From IMG/VR virus record IMGVR_UViG_3300045988_115474: a stretch of DNA of 64,000 bases; one strand, 5' to 3'. The stretch comes from a virus. This document shows, piece by piece, positions 21,377 through 28,368 of this stretch; within the stretch, counting starts at the first letter, position 1, and each line of letters starts with the position of its first letter. Both the position numbers and the translations under genes were made by a program. The notes under the pieces are model-generated. The model was not told the origin of the DNA, ran no database searches, and saw nothing but the letters and a program-made list of their open reading frames with translations.

Positions 21377-21796
21377 ATGGATAACAATATTGACCCGAAG
21401 GTCGGAGAGGTTTGGTTGGTTGATCTATCCAATGCGACAGGTCATCAGCAGCGCGGTATTCGACCGTTTGTTGTGACAAGCAACAATAAGCGTAACCTCT
21501 TCAGCCCAACAATCAAGGGGAATCCGTTATCTTCAAGAATATACAAGCGTTCTCCGGTTCATGTTCTACTCTCAAAGGAAGACTGTGATTTCCTAGAGGT
21601 TGACAGTATTGTTCTTTGTGAAGAGACTGATACCCTTAATAAAGGACAGTTCATCAAGAGACTTGGTGTCTTGTCGGAGCGTCAAATGAATATGATCGCA
21701 ATGGCAAGATGCAAGGATGAACCGTTTTTGCTCGCAGCATTCCTGAGCGGCGTACAACATACTATGGATTTTCAGAATTTTGCCGCATTTGCTTGA
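21377..21796 (+). CDS. MazF/PemK/Kid-family endoribonuclease-like toxin with a ~25-aa C-terminal extension
   Basis: KVGEVWLVDLSNATGHQQRGIRPFVVTSNNKRN...SIVLCEETDTLNKGQFIKRLGVLSERQMNMIAMA follows the MazF/PemK pattern (GxxxxVDxxPxxGxExxGxRPxVV...TxDKxRL). Strong RBS AGAGGAGAAAGACTATG. Confidence 0.65.
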   Translation: MDNNIDPKVGEVWLVDLSNATGHQQRGIRPFVVTSNNKRNLFSPTIKGNPLSSRIYKRSPVHVLLSKEDCDFLEVDSIVLCEETDTLNKGQFIKRLGVLSERQMNMIAMARCKDEPFLLAAFLSGVQHTMDFQNFAAFA

Positions 21797-23914: not shown

Positions 23915-26125
23915 ATGAGAACTTTGCTTCTTTTCCGTGGAGCACCCGGATGCGGGAAATCCACCTATATTAAAGAGCATGATCTGGAAAAGTATACGCT
24001 TAGTGCCGATACGATTCGCCTTATGTGTCAGGGTGGTCAGGAAACCCCAGCTGGCACAATGGAAATCTCTCCTCAGAACGATGATGTTGTCTGGGATATG
24101 CTCTTTAAACTGTTGGAGGTTCGGATGTCTCACGGTGAATTTACCGTGATTGATGCAACGAATTCCAAGACGGTCGAAATGAATCGTTATAAGAATCTTG
24201 CAAAACAGTATCGTTATCGGATGTATGTTATTAACATGACGGACCTTCCGATCGAGGAATGCAAACGAAGAAACGCTCAGAGAGAATGGCTGAAGCGAGT
24301 TCCTGAAGCGGCTATTGATAAGATGTACGCTCGGTTTGCTACTCAAAAAGTTCCTTCTGGCGTGACAGTTCTTCCTTCTACTACGGATGTGATGTCCGAT
24401 TTGAACTACTGTCCGAATGACTTCAACCAGTGGAAGAAGATTCATGTCATCGGTGATGTTCATGGCTGTTATACTTGTTTAAGTGAATACCTTGGTGAGA
24501 TGAAGGACGACGAACTTTATATCTTCGTTGGTGATTATCTCGATCGTGGCATTGAAAACGTTGAGGTATTCAAGTTCTTGTGTGATGTTGTAAATAACAA
24601 CCGCAAGAATGTGATCCTTTTGGAAGGGAATCACGAGCGTTGGCTGAACAAGTGGGGGCATGATGAACCGGTTCAGAGTGAAGAGTTTGCAAACTACACT
24701 CGTCCGCAGCTCTTTAAAGCCGGTATTGACAAGAACACTGCTCGTAAGATCTATTCCAGAGTTGGCCAATGTGCCTACTTTGAGTATGATGGGAAGCAGT
24801 ATTTCGTGAGCCACGGTGGTTTGAGTTATCTGCCTTATTTTCTTCCTTTTGTATCTGCTGACCAGATGATTAAAGGTGTGGGTCGCTATCCTGATATGCT
24901 AACCGTGGCTGAGTCTTGGGAAAAATCGATGCCGGATAGCTACATTCAGATCTTCGGTCATCGAAATGTGCAGGATGTTCCTATTGATATGGGGCATCGG
25001 TGTTACAACCTCGAAGGAAAAATCGAGTTTGGTGGATATCTCCGTTGCGTGGAACTTGAACACGGTCAGTCAATCAAATGTGTAGAAACAAAGAACGATG
25101 TGTTCCGAAAAGAGGAGCCAAAGACTGAAACTGCCGTTGAAATGAAAACTGAGTTCGATAACGCAGAACTTGTCAGTAAGATGCGTCAAAGCAAATATGT
25201 GTTTGAGAAGCGATTCGGAGATATTTCTTCTTTCAACTTCTCTCGTGAAGCATTTTATAAGAAGCACTGGGATGAGGTTTCTACCAAAGCAAGGGGATTG
25301 TTCATTAACACAAAGACGAATAAGATTGTAGCTCGAAGCTATGATAAGTTCTTTGCGGTCGATGAGCGGAATGAAACGAGAATTGGAAACCTACAGAACA
25401 CTTTGAAGTTCCCGGTGACTGCATATCTGAAGGAAAACGGATTTCTTGGCATTGTCTCATATGATGCAGAACAGGATGGTCTGTTCATTGCAAGTAAATC
25501 CACTCCTGAAGGGCCTTTTGCAGATATGTTCCGAAAGATTCTCATGGATACGACTTCTGATGAAGACCGTAAGAATCTGAAGGAAGTTGCAAAAGAGAAT
25601 GGTTCCATCATTTTTGAGGTGATTGATCCTATAAATGATGCTCATATCATCGAATACAAGAAACCGCACATTGTTTTGCTGGATATTGTTGCGAATGATA
25701 TGAACTTCAGTGTGATGGATTACGATGATCTGAAGCGTGTTGCTGAAAAGTGTCATTTGCAGATTAAGGAGAAGGTTAAGATCTTTGAGTGCTGGAGTGA
25801 ATTCTATCCTTGGTATGAAGAAGTCATGAATGAGAATTATCTGTACCATGGCATCGAGCATATTGAAGGCTTTGTTTTGAGAGATAACAACAATTTTATG
25901 TTTAAGCTGAAGCTTCCTTATTATAAGCACTGGAAGTTCTTGCGTGGTGTTATGCAGAGCGTTCAGAAGCGTGGCTATTATGAAAATACCGCAAAGTTGT
26001 TTACTGCTGAGGATAACCTGTTCTATGGTTGGATGCGTGAGCAACGAGAGAAAGATCAGGAATCTTTCTGCAAGAAGGGTATTATTCAGTTACGGAATGA
26101 ATTCTATGAGAATCGGCACGAATAA
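23915..26125 (+). CDS. polynucleotide kinase / phosphatase / ligase (bacterial Pnkp-like RNA end-healing and sealing enzyme)
   Basis: N-terminus: P-loop kinase FRGAPGCGKST. Middle: calcineurin-like phosphoesterase motifs HVIGDVHGC, GDYLDRG and GNHER. C-terminus: nucleotidyltransferase/ligase-like motifs KENGFLG (motif I, K-x-N-G), EGFVLRD (IV) and FKLKLP (V). RBS AAAAGGGGAGAAAACAATG. Confidence 0.75.
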   Translation: MRTLLLFRGAPGCGKSTYIKEHDLEKYTLSADTIRLMCQGGQETPAGTMEISPQNDDVVWDMLFKLLEVRMSHGEFTVIDATNSKTVEMNRYKNLAKQYRYRMYVINMTDLPIEECKRRNAQREWLKRVPEAAIDKMYARFATQKVPSGVTVLPSTTDVMSDLNYCPNDFNQWKKIHVIGDVHGCYTCLSEYLGEMKDDELYIFVGDYLDRGIENVEVFKFLCDVVNNNRKNVILLEGNHERWLNKWGHDEPVQSEEFANYTRPQLFKAGIDKNTARKIYSRVGQCAYFEYDGKQYFVSHGGLSYLPYFLPFVSADQMIKGVGRYPDMLTVAESWEKSMPDSYIQIFGHRNVQDVPIDMGHRCYNLEGKIEFGGYLRCVELEHGQSIKCVETKNDVFRKEEPKTETAVEMKTEFDNAELVSKMRQSKYVFEKRFGDISSFNFSREAFYKKHWDEVSTKARGLFINTKTNKIVARSYDKFFAVDERNETRIGNLQNTLKFPVTAYLKENGFLGIVSYDAEQDGLFIASKSTPEGPFADMFRKILMDTTSDEDRKNLKEVAKENGSIIFEVIDPINDAHIIEYKKPHIVLLDIVANDMNFSVMDYDDLKRVAEKCHLQIKEKVKIFECWSEFYPWYEEVMNENYLYHGIEHIEGFVLRDNNNFMFKLKLPYYKHWKFLRGVMQSVQKRGYYENTAKLFTAEDNLFYGWMREQREKDQESFCKKGIIQLRNEFYENRHE

Positions 26126-26190: not shown

Positions 26191-26266
26191 GGCCCTATGG
26201 CGGAATTAGGCATACGCAACAAGCTCAAACCTTGTAAAATTCTCAGTTCAAATCTGAGTAGGGCTA
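26191..26266 (+). tRNA. tRNA with anticodon CAA in a class I (short variable arm) fold; isotype unclear (Leu-like anticodon without a long arm)
   Basis: Manual fold: acceptor GGCCCTA/TAGGGCT (G1-U72), D arm GCGG..ACGC, anticodon stem ACAAG/CTTGT, loop CTCAAAC, T arm CTCAG-TTCAAAT-CTGAG, A73 and encoded CCA. Confidence 0.5.
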
Positions 26267-26348
26267 CCAACCCATTTGCAGATGGGTAAGTGCTAGAATA
26301 TTGGCAAATTGGAAAGACGGTTGACTGCTGGACAGACAGCTTTGATAT

Positions 26349-26431
26349 GCTACCGTGGTGGAATGGCAGACACCGGAGACTTAAAATCTCCTGTCGGCAA
26401 CGACGTGCCCGTTCAAGTCGGGTCGGTAGCA
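26349..26431 (+). tRNA. tRNA-Leu (anticodon TAA), class II
   Basis: Acceptor GCTACCG/CGGTAGC, anticodon stem GGAGA/TCTCC with loop CTTAAAA, 15-nt variable arm with GTCG/CGAC stem, T arm GCCCG-TTCAAGT-CGGGT, A73. Confidence 0.75.
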
Positions 26432-26438
26432 CTAATAT

Positions 26439-26511
26439 CCGGGTGTAGCTCAGTTGGAAGAGCGCCTGCTTTGGGAGCAGGAGGCCGCAGGATCATGACC
26501 TGTCACTCGGA
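26439..26511 (+). tRNA. tRNA-Pro (anticodon TGG)
   Basis: C1-G72 acceptor (CCGGGTG/CACTCGG), D arm GCTC-AGTTGGAA-GAGC, anticodon stem CCTGC/GCAGG with loop TTTGGGA, T arm GCAGG-ATCATGA-CCTGT (A54/U58 variant), A73 and CCA. Confidence 0.65.
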
Positions 26512-26602
26512 CCAGCCCGAAAGGGTATGTAGAATTTTTCATTCACATTATTCCCAGCCCTCTGGAAACAGAGCAGTGTGGCATAGCAAGCTGGGTAGAT
26601 TA

Positions 26603-26674
26603 CGAGGATTAGCCAAGCGGATAAGGCAGTGGAATTTGACTCCACGACCGCAGGTTCGATTCCTGCACACTCGA
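26603..26674 (+). tRNA. tRNA-Gln-like (anticodon TTG) with two acceptor-stem mismatches
   Basis: D arm GCCAAGCGGATAAGGC, anticodon stem GTGGA/TCCAC with loop ATTTGAC, T arm GCAGG-TTCGATT-CCTGC. Acceptor CGAGGAT/ACACTCG pairs at only 5 of 7 positions. Confidence 0.5.
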
Positions 26675-26681
26675 TTTATAT

Positions 26682-26763
26682 GCGGGTATGGTGTAACTGG
26701 CAGCCACGCGGATTTTAGGTGTCCGTGCCGAAAGGCGTGAGGGATCGTGCCCCTCTACCCGTA
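26682..26763 (+). tRNA. tRNA-Leu (anticodon TAG), class II
   Basis: Acceptor GCGGGTA/TACCCGT, anticodon stem CGGAT/GTCCG with loop TTTAGGT, 13-nt variable arm (GCC-GAAA-GGC), T arm GAGGG-ATCGTGC-CCCTC, A73 and CCA. Confidence 0.7.
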
Positions 26764-26869
26764 CCACGGTCATAGAATGGTTGCGTACCGTTTGTTGATC
26801 TCCTTTGGCCACTATTATTCCCAGCTCGCTCGTAAGAGTGCAGTAGTGCTTTGTAAACTGGGTGATTGT

Positions 26870-26941
26870 GCAGTTATTGTGTAGTTGGTAAGCACGCTTG
26901 CTGATGAAGTAAGAGGACGAGTTCAAAACTCATTGACTGCA
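26870..26941 (+). tRNA. tRNA-like element (possible degenerate tRNA or pseudogene)
   Basis: Acceptor GCAGTTA/TGACTGC pairs fully and the D arm is good (GTGT..GCAC), but the anticodon loop TGATGAA lacks U33, the T stem has a mismatch and the variable region is 3 nt. Confidence 0.3.
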
Positions 26942-27144
26942 AAATATGAAATCAGTTGTTCTAGCTCGTTCGTGGATTGGCCGTACATTGGCGACCGGAA
27001 AGACGTCATACCGGTAAAGGACGTCAAGCCAGACAAGAAGAGAAATAAGGTGTAAGCCGACTAGCTATCGGATAAATACTCTTCGGTTCGCCAGAAAACT
27101 AGAATGTAAAACGAATGGTTGGCTGTTTCTGATTTCATTTATAT

Positions 27145-27217
27145 GCGACTGTAGTTCAATTGGCAGAGCGTCAGATTTCCAATCTGAATGTTGCGGGATC
27201 GTGCCCCGTCAGTCGCT
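27145..27217 (+). tRNA. tRNA-Gly (anticodon TCC)
   Basis: Perfect acceptor GCGACTG/CAGTCGC, D arm GTTC..GAGC, anticodon stem TCAGA/TCTGA with loop TTTCCAA, T arm GCGGG-ATCGTGC-CCCGT, U73 and CCA. Confidence 0.75.
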
Positions 27218-27351
27218 CCACACGCAGCCCCTTACGCTGCACCGGTTGCTCAGAGCCGAAAGAAACCTATATGTTACGACATGGTTGCCAAGAGTGATCA
27301 TATTGGAACGCGACGTAGCTTGGATAGTGAGAATTAAATTCTGAGGTATAC

Positions 27352-27420
27352 TGCTGGATAGCTTAATGGTAAAAGCGCTCGGAAACGCCGAGAGATAAGG
27401 TTCAATTCCTTCACTGGCAT
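27352..27420 (+). tRNA. degenerate tRNA-like element (anticodon loop of only 5 nt)
   Basis: Acceptor TGCTGGA/ACTGGCA (6 of 7 pairs including G-U), D arm GCTT-AATGGTAA-AAGC, T arm TAAGG-TTCAATT-CCTTC; the anticodon arm CTCGG-AAACG-CCGAG is too short to be functional. Confidence 0.25.
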
Positions 27421-27447
27421 CACGCCGATGAAAGTCGGCGTTTGCAT

Positions 27448-27521
27448 GGGATAGTAGCTCAGTTGGTCAGAGCTGGCGGCTCATAACCGCTTGGTCGCGA
27501 GTTCAAATCTTGCCTGTCCCA
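27448..27521 (+). tRNA. tRNA-Met (anticodon CAT), elongator or Ile2-like (G1-C72 paired, so not an initiator)
   Basis: Acceptor GGGATAG/CTGTCCC, D arm GCTC-AGTTGGTCA-GAGC, anticodon stem GGCGG/CCGCT with loop CTCATAA, T arm GCGAG-TTCAAAT-CTTGC, A73 and CCA. Confidence 0.8.
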
Positions 27522-27627
27522 CCAGCCCGATAGGGCATACATAAAATCTGCTAGAACTTTTGTTTTATAAGCGAATTTATAATATGACGTTAATACGTCT
27601 ATTATTTTTCGCTCATTTTTAAAGTTT

Positions 27628-27648: not shown

Positions 27649-27723
27649 TAAAAGGAGGAATGTGTAATCTTACGAGTTTTAATTGCCTGTGAAGAATCAC
27701 AGGAAGTTTGTAAAGCATTTCGA

Positions 27724-28368
27724 TTGCTTGGTCATGAAGCGTATTCTTGCGATATTCAACCTCCGTCCGGTGGTCACCCAGAGTGGCATATTTTGGGTAA
27801 CGCACTGGCAGCTCTACAGGGTGGGCAGATAGTCACAATGGACGGCACACAACACTATGTTAAGCAGTGGGATCTATTGATTGCACATCCTCCGTGTACA
27901 TATTTATCAAACGCTGGCGCACGATGGTTATGGGCTGGACACAAATTGAATCAAGAACGGTATCAACGAGGATTGGAAGCTAAGGAATTTTTTATGGCGT
28001 TTTATAACGCACCGATCAAACACATTTGTGTTGAAAATCCAATTCCGAGTGCTGTTTATGAAATGCCAAAACCATCGCAGATGATTCAGCCATATGAATT
28101 TTATGGTAAGGACCACCCATGGACAAAGAAGACCTGTTTATGGCTGAAAGGTCTTCCTAATCTGGTTCCGGTTGAAGCGGTTGAACCGAAGGGTCCGTAT
28201 TGTCCTTGTGGAACTTCGGCCAATAAAGGCAATGTAAGAAATCGTGGCGCAGCCAAACGTGGTGAGGATGCGAAAAATAGAGCCAAGACTTTTCATGGCG
28301 TTGCTCGTGCCTTTGCAGAACAGTTCTCGGCTTACATCGAAAGTGAGGGCGAAAATGCCAGAAAATAA
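27724..28368 (+). CDS. C5-cytosine-methyltransferase-like protein (PC and ENV motifs); N-terminal boundary unresolved, with the reading frame open upstream to 27652 but no canonical start
   Basis: Motif IV-like LIAHPPCTYLSNAG and motif VI-like ICVENPIP. The upstream in-frame RVLIACEESQEVCKAF resembles a motif I strand but lacks FxGxGG. The nearest ATG (27660) is in another frame with 1-nt SD spacing. Confidence 0.45.
   Translation: MLGHEAYSCDIQPPSGGHPEWHILGNALAALQGGQIVTMDGTQHYVKQWDLLIAHPPCTYLSNAGARWLWAGHKLNQERYQRGLEAKEFFMAFYNAPIKHICVENPIPSAVYEMPKPSQMIQPYEFYGKDHPWTKKTCLWLKGLPNLVPVEAVEPKGPYCPCGTSANKGNVRNRGAAKRGEDAKNRAKTFHGVARAFAEQFSAYIESEGENARK

Follow-up and report, generated by a model that had tools for sequence, protein, structure and literature searches.

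The viral sequence IMGVR_UViG_3300045988_115474, a 64,000 nucleotide stretch analysed here in full (the window), contains a tRNA cassette that spans positions 26191–27524 on the + strand, directly behind a gene for a kinase–phosphatase–RNA ligase fusion. A preliminary description, which relied on folding by eye, reported exchanged T-loop bases in three of the tRNAs, a tRNA with a CAA anticodon in a short body, two degenerate tRNA-like units and duplicated leader segments. The question raised by this locus is whether these departures are mistakes or signs of decay, or variants maintained in working phage tRNAs, and what such variants could be for. For comparison of the array, we used the window and 80 related viral contigs (81 loci; relatives L001–L080), which were retrieved via ligase protein similarity and encode ligases that share 90–98% amino acid identity with the window copy.

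Exchanged T-loop bases in the array and elsewhere

tRNA genes were called with ARAGORN and with the Rfam tRNA covariance model RF00005, which has a gathering score of 29 bits. ARAGORN returned eight genes at 26191–27524, and the Rfam local search returned eight matches that score 32.3–65.7 bits. By these two methods, the tRNAs of the array are real. The seven genes with a 7 nt anticodon loop that includes U33 are as follows:

26191–26269, + strand: tRNA-Leu(CAA) with a class I body; ARAGORN; Rfam 52.2 bits; CCA encoded
26349–26432, + strand: tRNA-Leu(UAA), class II; ARAGORN; Rfam 47.7 bits; normal T-loop; CCA not encoded
26439–26514, + strand: tRNA-Pro(UGG); ARAGORN; Rfam 58.6 bits; T-loop AUCAUGA; CCA encoded
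26603–26674, + strand: tRNA-Gln(UUG); ARAGORN; Rfam 48 bits; CCA not encoded
26682–26766, + strand: tRNA-Leu(UAG), class II; ARAGORN; T-loop AUCGUGC; CCA encoded
27145–27220, + strand: tRNA-Gly(UCC); ARAGORN; Rfam 59.8 bits; T-loop AUCGUGC; U73; CCA encoded
27448–27524, + strand: tRNA with a CAU anticodon; ARAGORN (Met/Ile-CAU); Rfam 65.7 bits; CCA encoded

The Leu(UAA), Pro(UGG), Leu(UAG), Gly(UCC) and Gln(UUG) genes that had been folded by eye were all found by ARAGORN. With the T-loop register set by covariance-model alignment, the bases at positions 54 and 58 are A and U in tRNA-Pro (26492 and 26496), in Leu-UAG (26744 and 26748) and in tRNA-Gly (27198 and 27202), which is exactly how the preliminary description had read these three loops. 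The conserved U54-U55-C56-R57-A58 rule is broken at 54/58 in these genes, and U55, C56, R57, the G53–C61 pair and G18-G19 are retained.

When all 579 ARAGORN tRNAs from the window and the 80 relatives were compared, 476 had U54/A58, 103 had A54/U58 and none had a single swap. The A54/U58 form occupies 34 of 79 Pro, 48 of 95 Gly, 18 of 78 Leu-UAG and 3 of 79 Leu-UAA positions, and is spread over four tRNA lineages with different T-stems. In the A54/U58 lineage of tRNA-Gly, nearly all of the common variation is at T-loop positions 57, 59 and 60. A 476/103/0 distribution across loci excludes chance as the source of A54/U58, and the complete lack of single swaps is as expected if the tertiary pair between positions 54 and 58 has been retained. 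This covariation makes A54/U58 a compensated exchange of both partners in the T-loop 54–58 pair, not an error, and the compensation proposed on first inspection of the window is borne out without exception.

Leu-UAG was the only one of the three that was missed by Rfam, and no match to the tRNA model was obtained even when a 97 nt query was searched at E ≤ 10. The gene nonetheless folds into a full cloverleaf, and in a sister allele all five anticodon-stem pairs have changed yet remain paired (CGGAU/GUCCG versus UCAGA/UCUGA). As a tRNA that combines a long arm with A54/U58 is invisible to Rfam, tools that use covariance models may overlook others of its kind.

The wider distribution of A54/U58 was examined with a generic pattern made up of a common D-arm, a gap of tRNA length and then GGATCRTNNCC. 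In the viral collection, the pattern is present in at least 120 unrelated contigs from many environments. Among the matches listed, 122 of 124 lie inside ARAGORN tRNAs, with gap lengths of only 25–27 nt, and the tRNAs have approximately 20 anticodons (Ile-GAU, Asn, Asp, His, Lys, Thr, Met, Gly and others). The arrays of the listed contigs include 1505 tRNAs, 184 with A54/U58, 15 with A54/A58 and four with G54/G58. When 185,579 cellular genomes were scanned, 35 of the 120 matches listed were tRNAs, and the gaps in the other 85 were spread as they would be by chance. The swap is thus enriched in phages and is not unique to the window. With chance matches as the per-base yardstick, the density of A54/U58 tRNAs of this pattern is around 100-fold higher in viral than in cellular DNA, a rough estimate among the matches listed that has only two chance matches on its viral side. 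Cultured phages are included: Klebsiella phage FKP3 (PP895363; L323 49–126 and 3990–4064) has a tRNA-His with the T-loop AUCAUGC, again A54/U58. Its tRNA-Phe has C54, in the T-loop CUCGAUA. Both the exchanged T-loops and the short tRNA-Leu considered below are therefore widespread in phage tRNA arrays, rather than peculiar to this stretch as they had first seemed.

In cells, A54/U58 was found in the tRNA-His(GUG) of metagenome-assembled genomes of Kiritimatiellae and Verrucomicrobia (L203, L222, L237, L238, L273, L279 and L286). In the regions retrieved, these tRNA-His(GUG) genes are solitary or have a single other tRNA next to them. A54/U58 was likewise seen in tRNA-Lys(UUU) of bacteria of the Candidate Phyla Radiation and in tRNA-Thr(CGU) of Myxococcota. 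The exchanged bases thus seem to be in use in certain cellular lineages.

A54/U58 tRNAs do not appear to be back-ups of normal copies, as 8.6% of them are duplicated compared to 8.1% of normal tRNAs (p = 0.78). An A54/U58 tRNA is usually the sole gene for its anticodon in the array, and thus looks like a working decoder rather than a spare. Reviews describe U54 as universally conserved and list one exception, the A54–A58 T-loops of eukaryotes, which are found in initiator tRNA-Met and tRNA-Ala(AGC) and reportedly do not occur in bacteria or archaea (PMC7566577, PMC7912444). Like the loops described here, these have replaced U54 by A54 and kept the 54–58 pair in another form. However, they keep A58 and form a purine–purine pair, whereas in the window both partners have been exchanged, and this is seen in phage tRNAs and some bacterial ones. 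A full-text literature search returned no description of A54/U58 in phage tRNAs. An in vivo selection by Zagryadskaya et al. in 2003 reportedly gave U54-A58, G54-A58 and G54-G58 but not A54-U58. A54/U58 is a stable, strictly covarying alternative that phage tRNAs use commonly and cells rarely, and is apparently an undescribed property.

The window comes from a metagenomic assembly, Leu-UAG escapes Rfam, and the tRNA-Gln gene and one of the tRNA-like units (unit A, below) carry singleton mismatches, all of which would be in keeping with the odd T-loops and the short tRNA-Leu being products of misfolding by eye, tool error or assembly mistakes. But dozens of independent assemblies carry these alleles too, the register was fixed by covariance-model alignment with perfect covariation, and cultured phages share these features. 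The recurring alleles, the covariation, the viral matches that are tRNAs (122 of 124 among those listed) and the tRNA-His of FKP3 effectively refute an artefact.

A short tRNA-Leu(CAA) and the decoding set

The first tRNA of the array has U33 at 26225, the anticodon CAA at 26226–26228 and a 5 nt variable loop, AAAAU. A variable arm of more than 10 nt, by which class II tRNAs are defined, is present in Leu-UAA and Leu-UAG of the same array but not in Leu-CAA, so the class I body previously reported for this gene stands. The D-arm of Leu-CAA, GCGG-AAUUAGGCAU-ACGC, has a 3 bp stem with G13/A22 and is of the bacterial tRNA-Leu type, and A73, U8, A14, G18, G19, U55, C56 and an A15–U48 pair are all present. 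The sequence thus includes each of the elements (A73, U8–A14, G18–U55 and G19–C56) reported to provide identity for bacterial leucyl-tRNA synthetase (LeuRS) (PMC2377443). The Aquifex LeuRS relies on A73 and the tertiary core, and deletion of the variable arm mainly reduces affinity (PMC2377443). The slot occupied by this gene contains a class II Leu-CAA of 82–90 nt in 55 of 77 relatives and the short form in 22 of 78 loci. As the D-arm is of Leu type, A15–U48 and A73 are present and the slot is one for class II Leu-CAA, the gene is very probably a leucine tRNA of a short form that is typical of phages.

Indeed, 54 of 126 tRNA-Leu genes in phage arrays are short, compared to none of 102 tRNA-Ser and one of 51 tRNA-Tyr. 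The Proteus phage Stubb (MH830339) has annotated tRNA-Leu(UAA/UAG) genes of 77–78 nt with a 5 nt variable loop and A73, and the D-arm of its Leu-UAA, GGAAUAGGCAUACG, is nearly the same as that of Leu-CAA in the window, GGAAUUAGGCAUACG. Unlike the window, Stubb is a T5-like phage of Proteus and its T-loops are normal, and in the window family the short form is one allele among class II alleles of the same slot. The reverse arrangement was also observed. Gln-UUG genes of 87–90 nt, with long variable arms like those of class II, are present in L060, L022 and L070, and CAU tRNAs of 81–92 nt with long variable arms are present in L004 and L064.

The last tRNA had been assigned as Met(CAU). While its status as a tRNA is secure (65.7 bits), the Met identity is doubtful. 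In a few relatives, including L023 and L040, the same slot holds a clearly homologous tRNA with the anticodon UAU (Ile-UAU). As a homologous UAU tRNA replaces the CAU tRNA in these relatives, the gene at 27448–27524 is probably a tRNA-Ile2 that reads AUA. Seven decoding functions would be covered by the array: Leu UUR (by two tRNAs), Leu CUR, Pro CCR, Gln CAR, Gly GGR and probably Ile AUA.

tRNA-like units, leaders and spacers

Between the tRNA genes are two tRNA-like units, two structured leaders and two further spacers:

26546–26602, + strand: structured leader copy 1; 7 bp outer helix CCCAGCC/AGCUGGG and a 5 bp hairpin capped by GAAA; ends 7 nt before the Gln tRNA
26813–26869, + strand: structured leader copy 2; hairpin capped by GUAA; ends 7 nt before unit A
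26870–26941, + strand: tRNA-like unit A; Rfam 36.0 bits; ARAGORN 'His-AUG' at 26869–26942; A73, no CCA
26942–27144, + strand: 203 nt spacer module; perfect 10 bp inverted repeat (26946–26955 with 27129–27138); fold z = -2.16
27221–27351, + strand: 131 nt spacer; in 42 loci with 98–100% identity; moves with the Gly gene and unit B
27352–27420, + strand: tRNA-like unit B; Rfam 32.3 bits; not among the eight ARAGORN genes

It had been allowed at the outset that a covariance model might reject the CAA tRNA and the degenerate units, but all three score above the threshold (52.2, 36.0 and 32.3 versus 29 bits). The anticodon arms of both units are defective, as had been described, and neither unit has a 7 nt anticodon loop with U33. 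In unit A, the loop UGAUGAA (26902–26908) has G at position 33 (26903), and the 'His' label given by ARAGORN is meaningless because the G-1/C73 of histidine tRNA is absent. In unit B, the stem CUCGG/CCGAG encloses a 5 nt loop, AAACG (27383–27387), that is variable in relatives. The description of the remaining arms as good was correct only in part. The acceptor and D-arms of unit A are perfect, but the window copy has one T-stem mismatch, C50×A64, that is not present in relatives such as L002, where the T-arm is perfect; unit B has good D- and T-arms and a weak acceptor stem. Unit A was found in 17 of 81 loci at 96% identity or more, and other relatives have a 75 nt Gly-UCC gene in that slot. 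Unit B was found in 40 of 81 loci, with covariation in the T-stem (A50–U64 to G50–C64), and it travels with the A54/U58 Gly gene and the 131 nt spacer as a single insertion/deletion cassette. From their sequences, both units are tRNA-shaped RNAs without normal decoding ability. Stem mismatches in the window copies of unit A and of the tRNA-Gln gene (26603–26674) could be due to local decay or assembly error.

The nearest precedent appears to be in phage T5 (NC_005859, 28–41 kb). There, a tRNA cluster is accompanied by 'tRNA-like stable RNAs with unknown functions' (RNA1, RNA2 and RNA3), a pseudo-tRNA and further stable RNAs, comparable to the tRNA-like units and structured spacers among the tRNAs of the window. 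HNH homing endonucleases lie among the T5 tRNAs, as endonuclease genes do in relatives of the window. The stable RNAs and the pseudo-tRNA would be the closest counterparts of units A and B. T5 differs in that all of its ARAGORN-found tRNAs have U54/A58, its Leu-UAG is class II, it has approximately 25 tRNAs to the window's eight, no RNA-repair fusion is annotated in the 18 kb stretch examined, and nothing in it is similar in sequence to the leader element.

Units A and B had been suggested to be decoys, which would soak up anticodon nucleases. In both, the tRNA elbow is retained and the Rfam score exceeds the threshold, the T-stem of unit B is maintained by a compensatory change, and the locus adjoins an RNA-repair gene. 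However, anticodon nucleases recognise the anticodon loop, which is precisely the part that is abnormal here (G33 in one unit, a 5 nt loop in the other). Each unit is missing from over half of the relatives, the copies are too alike (at least 93% identical) to reveal purifying selection, unit A of the window has a broken T-stem pair, and the comparable T5 stable RNAs and pseudo-tRNA have no known role. We consider the decoy explanation unlikely. Units A and B and the leaders would most likely act in precursor processing, or be stable by-products; units A and B may also be genes in decay.

The two leaders had been taken for near-duplicates that mark a duplicated precursor module. They are related (approximately 76% identical) and belong to a family that is found in 78 of 81 loci in one to three copies per locus, and are not a recent duplication. 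In most copies, the 3′ end of the leader is about 7 nt before the 5′ end of a tRNA, and before the 76 nt Gly gene the distance is about 35 nt. The predicted fold, a 7 bp outer helix and a 5 bp hairpin with a GNRA tetraloop followed by a conserved strand of 15–21 nt, has double compensatory changes at 8 of 12 pairs, and 97.4% of cells are paired compared to at most 43% with slid partners. On this covariation, the leaders are a conserved structured RNA family. Our guess is that they would be released as structured 5′ leaders by RNase P and would aid folding or stability of the precursor. The contigs recovered by a pattern search for the leader were mostly from this phage family itself, which added nothing on how widely the leader is distributed, and Rfam searches with the spacers, the leader element and the 203 nt module returned no known family. 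A CRISPR-DR4 match at 26320–26347 (E = 0.33) and Plastid-ycf2 matches on the minus strand are weak and were taken as chance.

The position of the 203 nt module differs in many relatives; it is found either in the same place as in the window or between Leu-CAA and Leu-UAA. As it changes place, it acts like a small mobile or structured element. The fold of the 131 nt spacer is not unusual (z = -0.69). A scan for promoters and terminators inside the array found nothing convincing. TAGAAT is present four times on the + strand within 810 nt (26294, 26530, 26773 and 27100), three of them 7–27 nt past a tRNA 3′ end, and TAGAAC follows the last tRNA; TAGAAT is not enriched across the window. The motif might serve as a -10 element or in processing. 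Small hairpins are found directly 3′ of the encoded CCA of tRNA-Pro (26515–26526, GCCCGAAAGGGU) and the CAU tRNA (27525–27536, GCCCGAUAGGGC), and a 7 bp hairpin follows unit B at approximately 27422–27441.

Gene context and possible role of the variants

All genes in the window are on the + strand, and its G+C content is approximately 41%. Two genes upstream of the array are relevant to its role:

21377–21796, + strand: PemK/MazF-like endoribonuclease gene; Pfam PemK_toxin, E = 1.4e-19; about 2 kb upstream of the repair gene
23915–26125, + strand: kinase/metallophosphatase/Rnl1-type RNA ligase fusion, 736 aa; adjoins the array in the window and in 80 of 80 relatives

The fusion protein matches the Pfam families AAA_33 (residues 4–142), Metallophos (175–353) and RNA_lig_T4_1 (458–670), and its Protein Data Bank matches are to tRNA ligase, T4 Rnl1 and the kinase domain of Clostridium thermocellum Pnkp. 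By its architecture, it is predicted to be a tRNA-repair enzyme with 5′-kinase, 2′,3′-phosphatase and ATP-dependent RNA ligase modules. Downstream of the array is a replication module that includes a DnaE-type polymerase, helicases, primase, DNA ligase and anaerobic ribonucleotide reductase. Judged by its DNA polymerase, the phage is nearest among cultured phages to Clostridium phage Amboise (47% identity). An identical ligase protein is present on many metagenome-assembly contigs of 130–170 kb and on one of 340 kb, and the source is a family of human gut phages of roughly 110–170 kb. A megablast search of the array against cultured phages returned short tRNA-level matches only and no relative, and a scan of cellular genome contigs with the ligase protein found no relative and hence no pointer to a host.

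The array begins approximately 60–120 nt past the ligase stop codon in all relatives, and the order of anticodons is shared: Leu-CAA, Leu-UAA, Pro-UGG, Gln-UUG, Leu-UAG, one or two Gly-UCC and CAU (occasionally UAU). Within this order, each slot has 15–24 distinct sequences among the 81 loci, and in five of seven slots the median identity to the window allele is 65–75%, compared to 93% for the flanking ligase gene. Across the relatives, blocks of array DNA may be present, missing or moved elsewhere, which gives a mosaic, and in some of them genes of HNH, GIY-YIG and TnpB/IS605-OrfB-like types lie between tRNAs (L079 8760–9335, L028 9218–9643, L052 9799–10827, L050 9773–10492). Such endonuclease genes were seen inside the arrays of relatives only, and the window's own array has none. 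The locus is a phage tRNA cluster of the T4/T5 type, with tandem same-strand tRNAs and extra small RNAs, and with endonucleases in the relatives only. A gene just 3′ of the array (27664–28368) has no Pfam match. Only 14 of 80 relatives have a counterpart that aligns with it for more than 500 nt, which means that variability reaches beyond the tRNAs.

Phage T4 also has a small tRNA cluster, in which two additional stable RNAs and the homing endonuclease segB are encoded, and its Pnk and Rnl1 repair tRNA-Lys cut by PrrC, countering a host tRNA nuclease. In the window, by comparison, the kinase, phosphatase and ligase are fused in a single 736 aa protein that adjoins the array, and the predicted phosphatase is a metallophosphoesterase as in bacterial Pnkp.

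Our preferred reading, to which we assign a probability of about one half, is that the locus is a working phage cassette in which variants of the tRNA body preserve charging and ribosome function but alter the surfaces read by toxins, such that phage tRNAs would outlast the host copies. A54/U58 and the short tRNA-Leu are recurrent phage-type body variants, which related phages exchange in individual slots, probably with the help of homing endonucleases. Leu-CAA has lost the long variable arm and kept what bacterial LeuRS reads (A73 and the tertiary core, with A15–U48), and charging and ribosome function would be retained in both kinds of variant. A54 would remove the U54-U55 site required by T-loop nucleases such as the Schlafen-type CbCash, whose cleavage 5′ of U55 is abolished by a single mutation of U54 or U55 (PMC13462974). 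Loss of the variable arm would remove a mark used by toxins that favour class II tRNAs. AbiEii probably prefers class II tRNAs and MenT3 is specific for tRNA-Ser (bioRxiv 10.64898/2026.01.19.700257), and human SLFN11 prefers type II tRNAs (PMC13462974). The phage tRNAs could then survive an attack that disables those of the host. Whether CbCash targets phage tRNAs was left as an open question by its authors (PMC13462974). Judged on sequence, toxin evasion via a T-loop or variable-arm change is plausible.

Phage tRNAs that escape anticodon nucleases through changes in the anticodon loop have been described (eLife 2023, PMC10264068; Nat Commun 2024, PMC11555353; Nature 2024, PMC11464382). In these, as proposed here, decoding is kept while the changes defeat host defences that cut tRNA. 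The published escape tRNAs differ from those of the window in that they have changes in the anticodon loop or stem, rather than in T-loop positions 54/58 and the variable arm; the term 'T-loop' is absent from the full text of two of the reports (PMC10264068 and PMC11555353).

Several points weigh against this reading. Only three of the eight genes carry A54/U58, and as a broad T-loop nuclease would destroy the remaining host tRNAs, escape would be useful only against a tRNA-selective enzyme. Alleles with a normal T-loop occupy the same slots in sister phages, and the presence of A54/U58 in cellular tRNAs such as the tRNA-His of Kiritimatiellae indicates that the swap is tolerable without a defence context. 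Two acceptor-stem mismatches in the window tRNA-Gln, none of which is present in the L031 allele, and the T-stem mismatch in unit A, likewise absent in relatives, hint at relaxed constraint or assembly error.

The PemK/MazF-like gene suggests another source of damage, namely the phage itself. Its endoribonuclease would cut a subset of host tRNAs or mRNAs while the phage takes over the cell, the cassette would supply resistant substitutes and the ligase would mend collateral damage. The gene is close to the repair gene and present in 80 of 80 relatives at 94–100% identity, and the MazF family includes tRNA-specific cutters such as MazF-mt9. Its very constancy argues the other way, as no tie to particular tRNA alleles is discernible when every relative has the gene, and a fixed nuclease would not drive the allele diversity observed. 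The gene, for which no obvious antitoxin partner was identified, may simply be a toxin–antitoxin or superinfection-exclusion gene. Self-inflicted damage is thus a quite improbable explanation.

The cassette could also do no more than supplement tRNAs of which the host has few, with A54/U58, the short tRNA-Leu and the various alleles being neutral and shuffled by recombination. Phage tRNAs may be under weaker constraint, for example if m5U54 or m1A58 is not needed. Drift of this kind would fit the strict maintenance of the anticodon set while the tRNA bodies vary, the fact that all array tRNAs read codons that end in A or G, the presence of A54/U58 in cellular lineages and its similar rate of duplication, and homing endonucleases alone would suffice to produce the mosaicism. 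However, counts in the 43 long open reading frames of the window show that the array serves mostly minor codons there (UUA 10%, CUA 8%, AUA 8%, GGA 23%, CCA 21%). Drift also leaves unexplained the excess of A54/U58 in viral DNA (about 100-fold, roughly and among the matches listed), the loss of the arm in Leu but not in Ser or Tyr, and the constant linkage to an RNA-repair enzyme. We regard supplementation with drift as possible but doubtful.

The reading as a working cassette with toxin-evading tRNA bodies can be extended, more tentatively. A54/U58 T-loops and tRNA-Leu without the long variable arm may form a general, undescribed class of phage counter-defence alleles that evade T-loop nucleases (Schlafen/Cash-like and CdiA-like) and toxins that prefer class II tRNAs (AbiEii/MenT-like) while the 54–58 pair and leucine identity are kept. 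A cassette that is hypervariable in sequence and conserved in its slots, beside an RNA-repair enzyme, would then be the footprint of an arms race.

U54 and A58 are textbook examples of near-universal tRNA bases, and their reciprocal swap shows that a stable, covarying alternative exists. As A54/U58 can hide a genuine tRNA from the standard covariance model, as seen with Leu-UAG, phage tRNA annotation and host prediction based on tRNAs may under-count such genes. Sister phages that carry either T-loop type in the same anticodon slot are a natural test set for escape from Schlafen T-loop nucleases, a question that is open in 2026. The window is one instance of a wider property of phage tRNAs.

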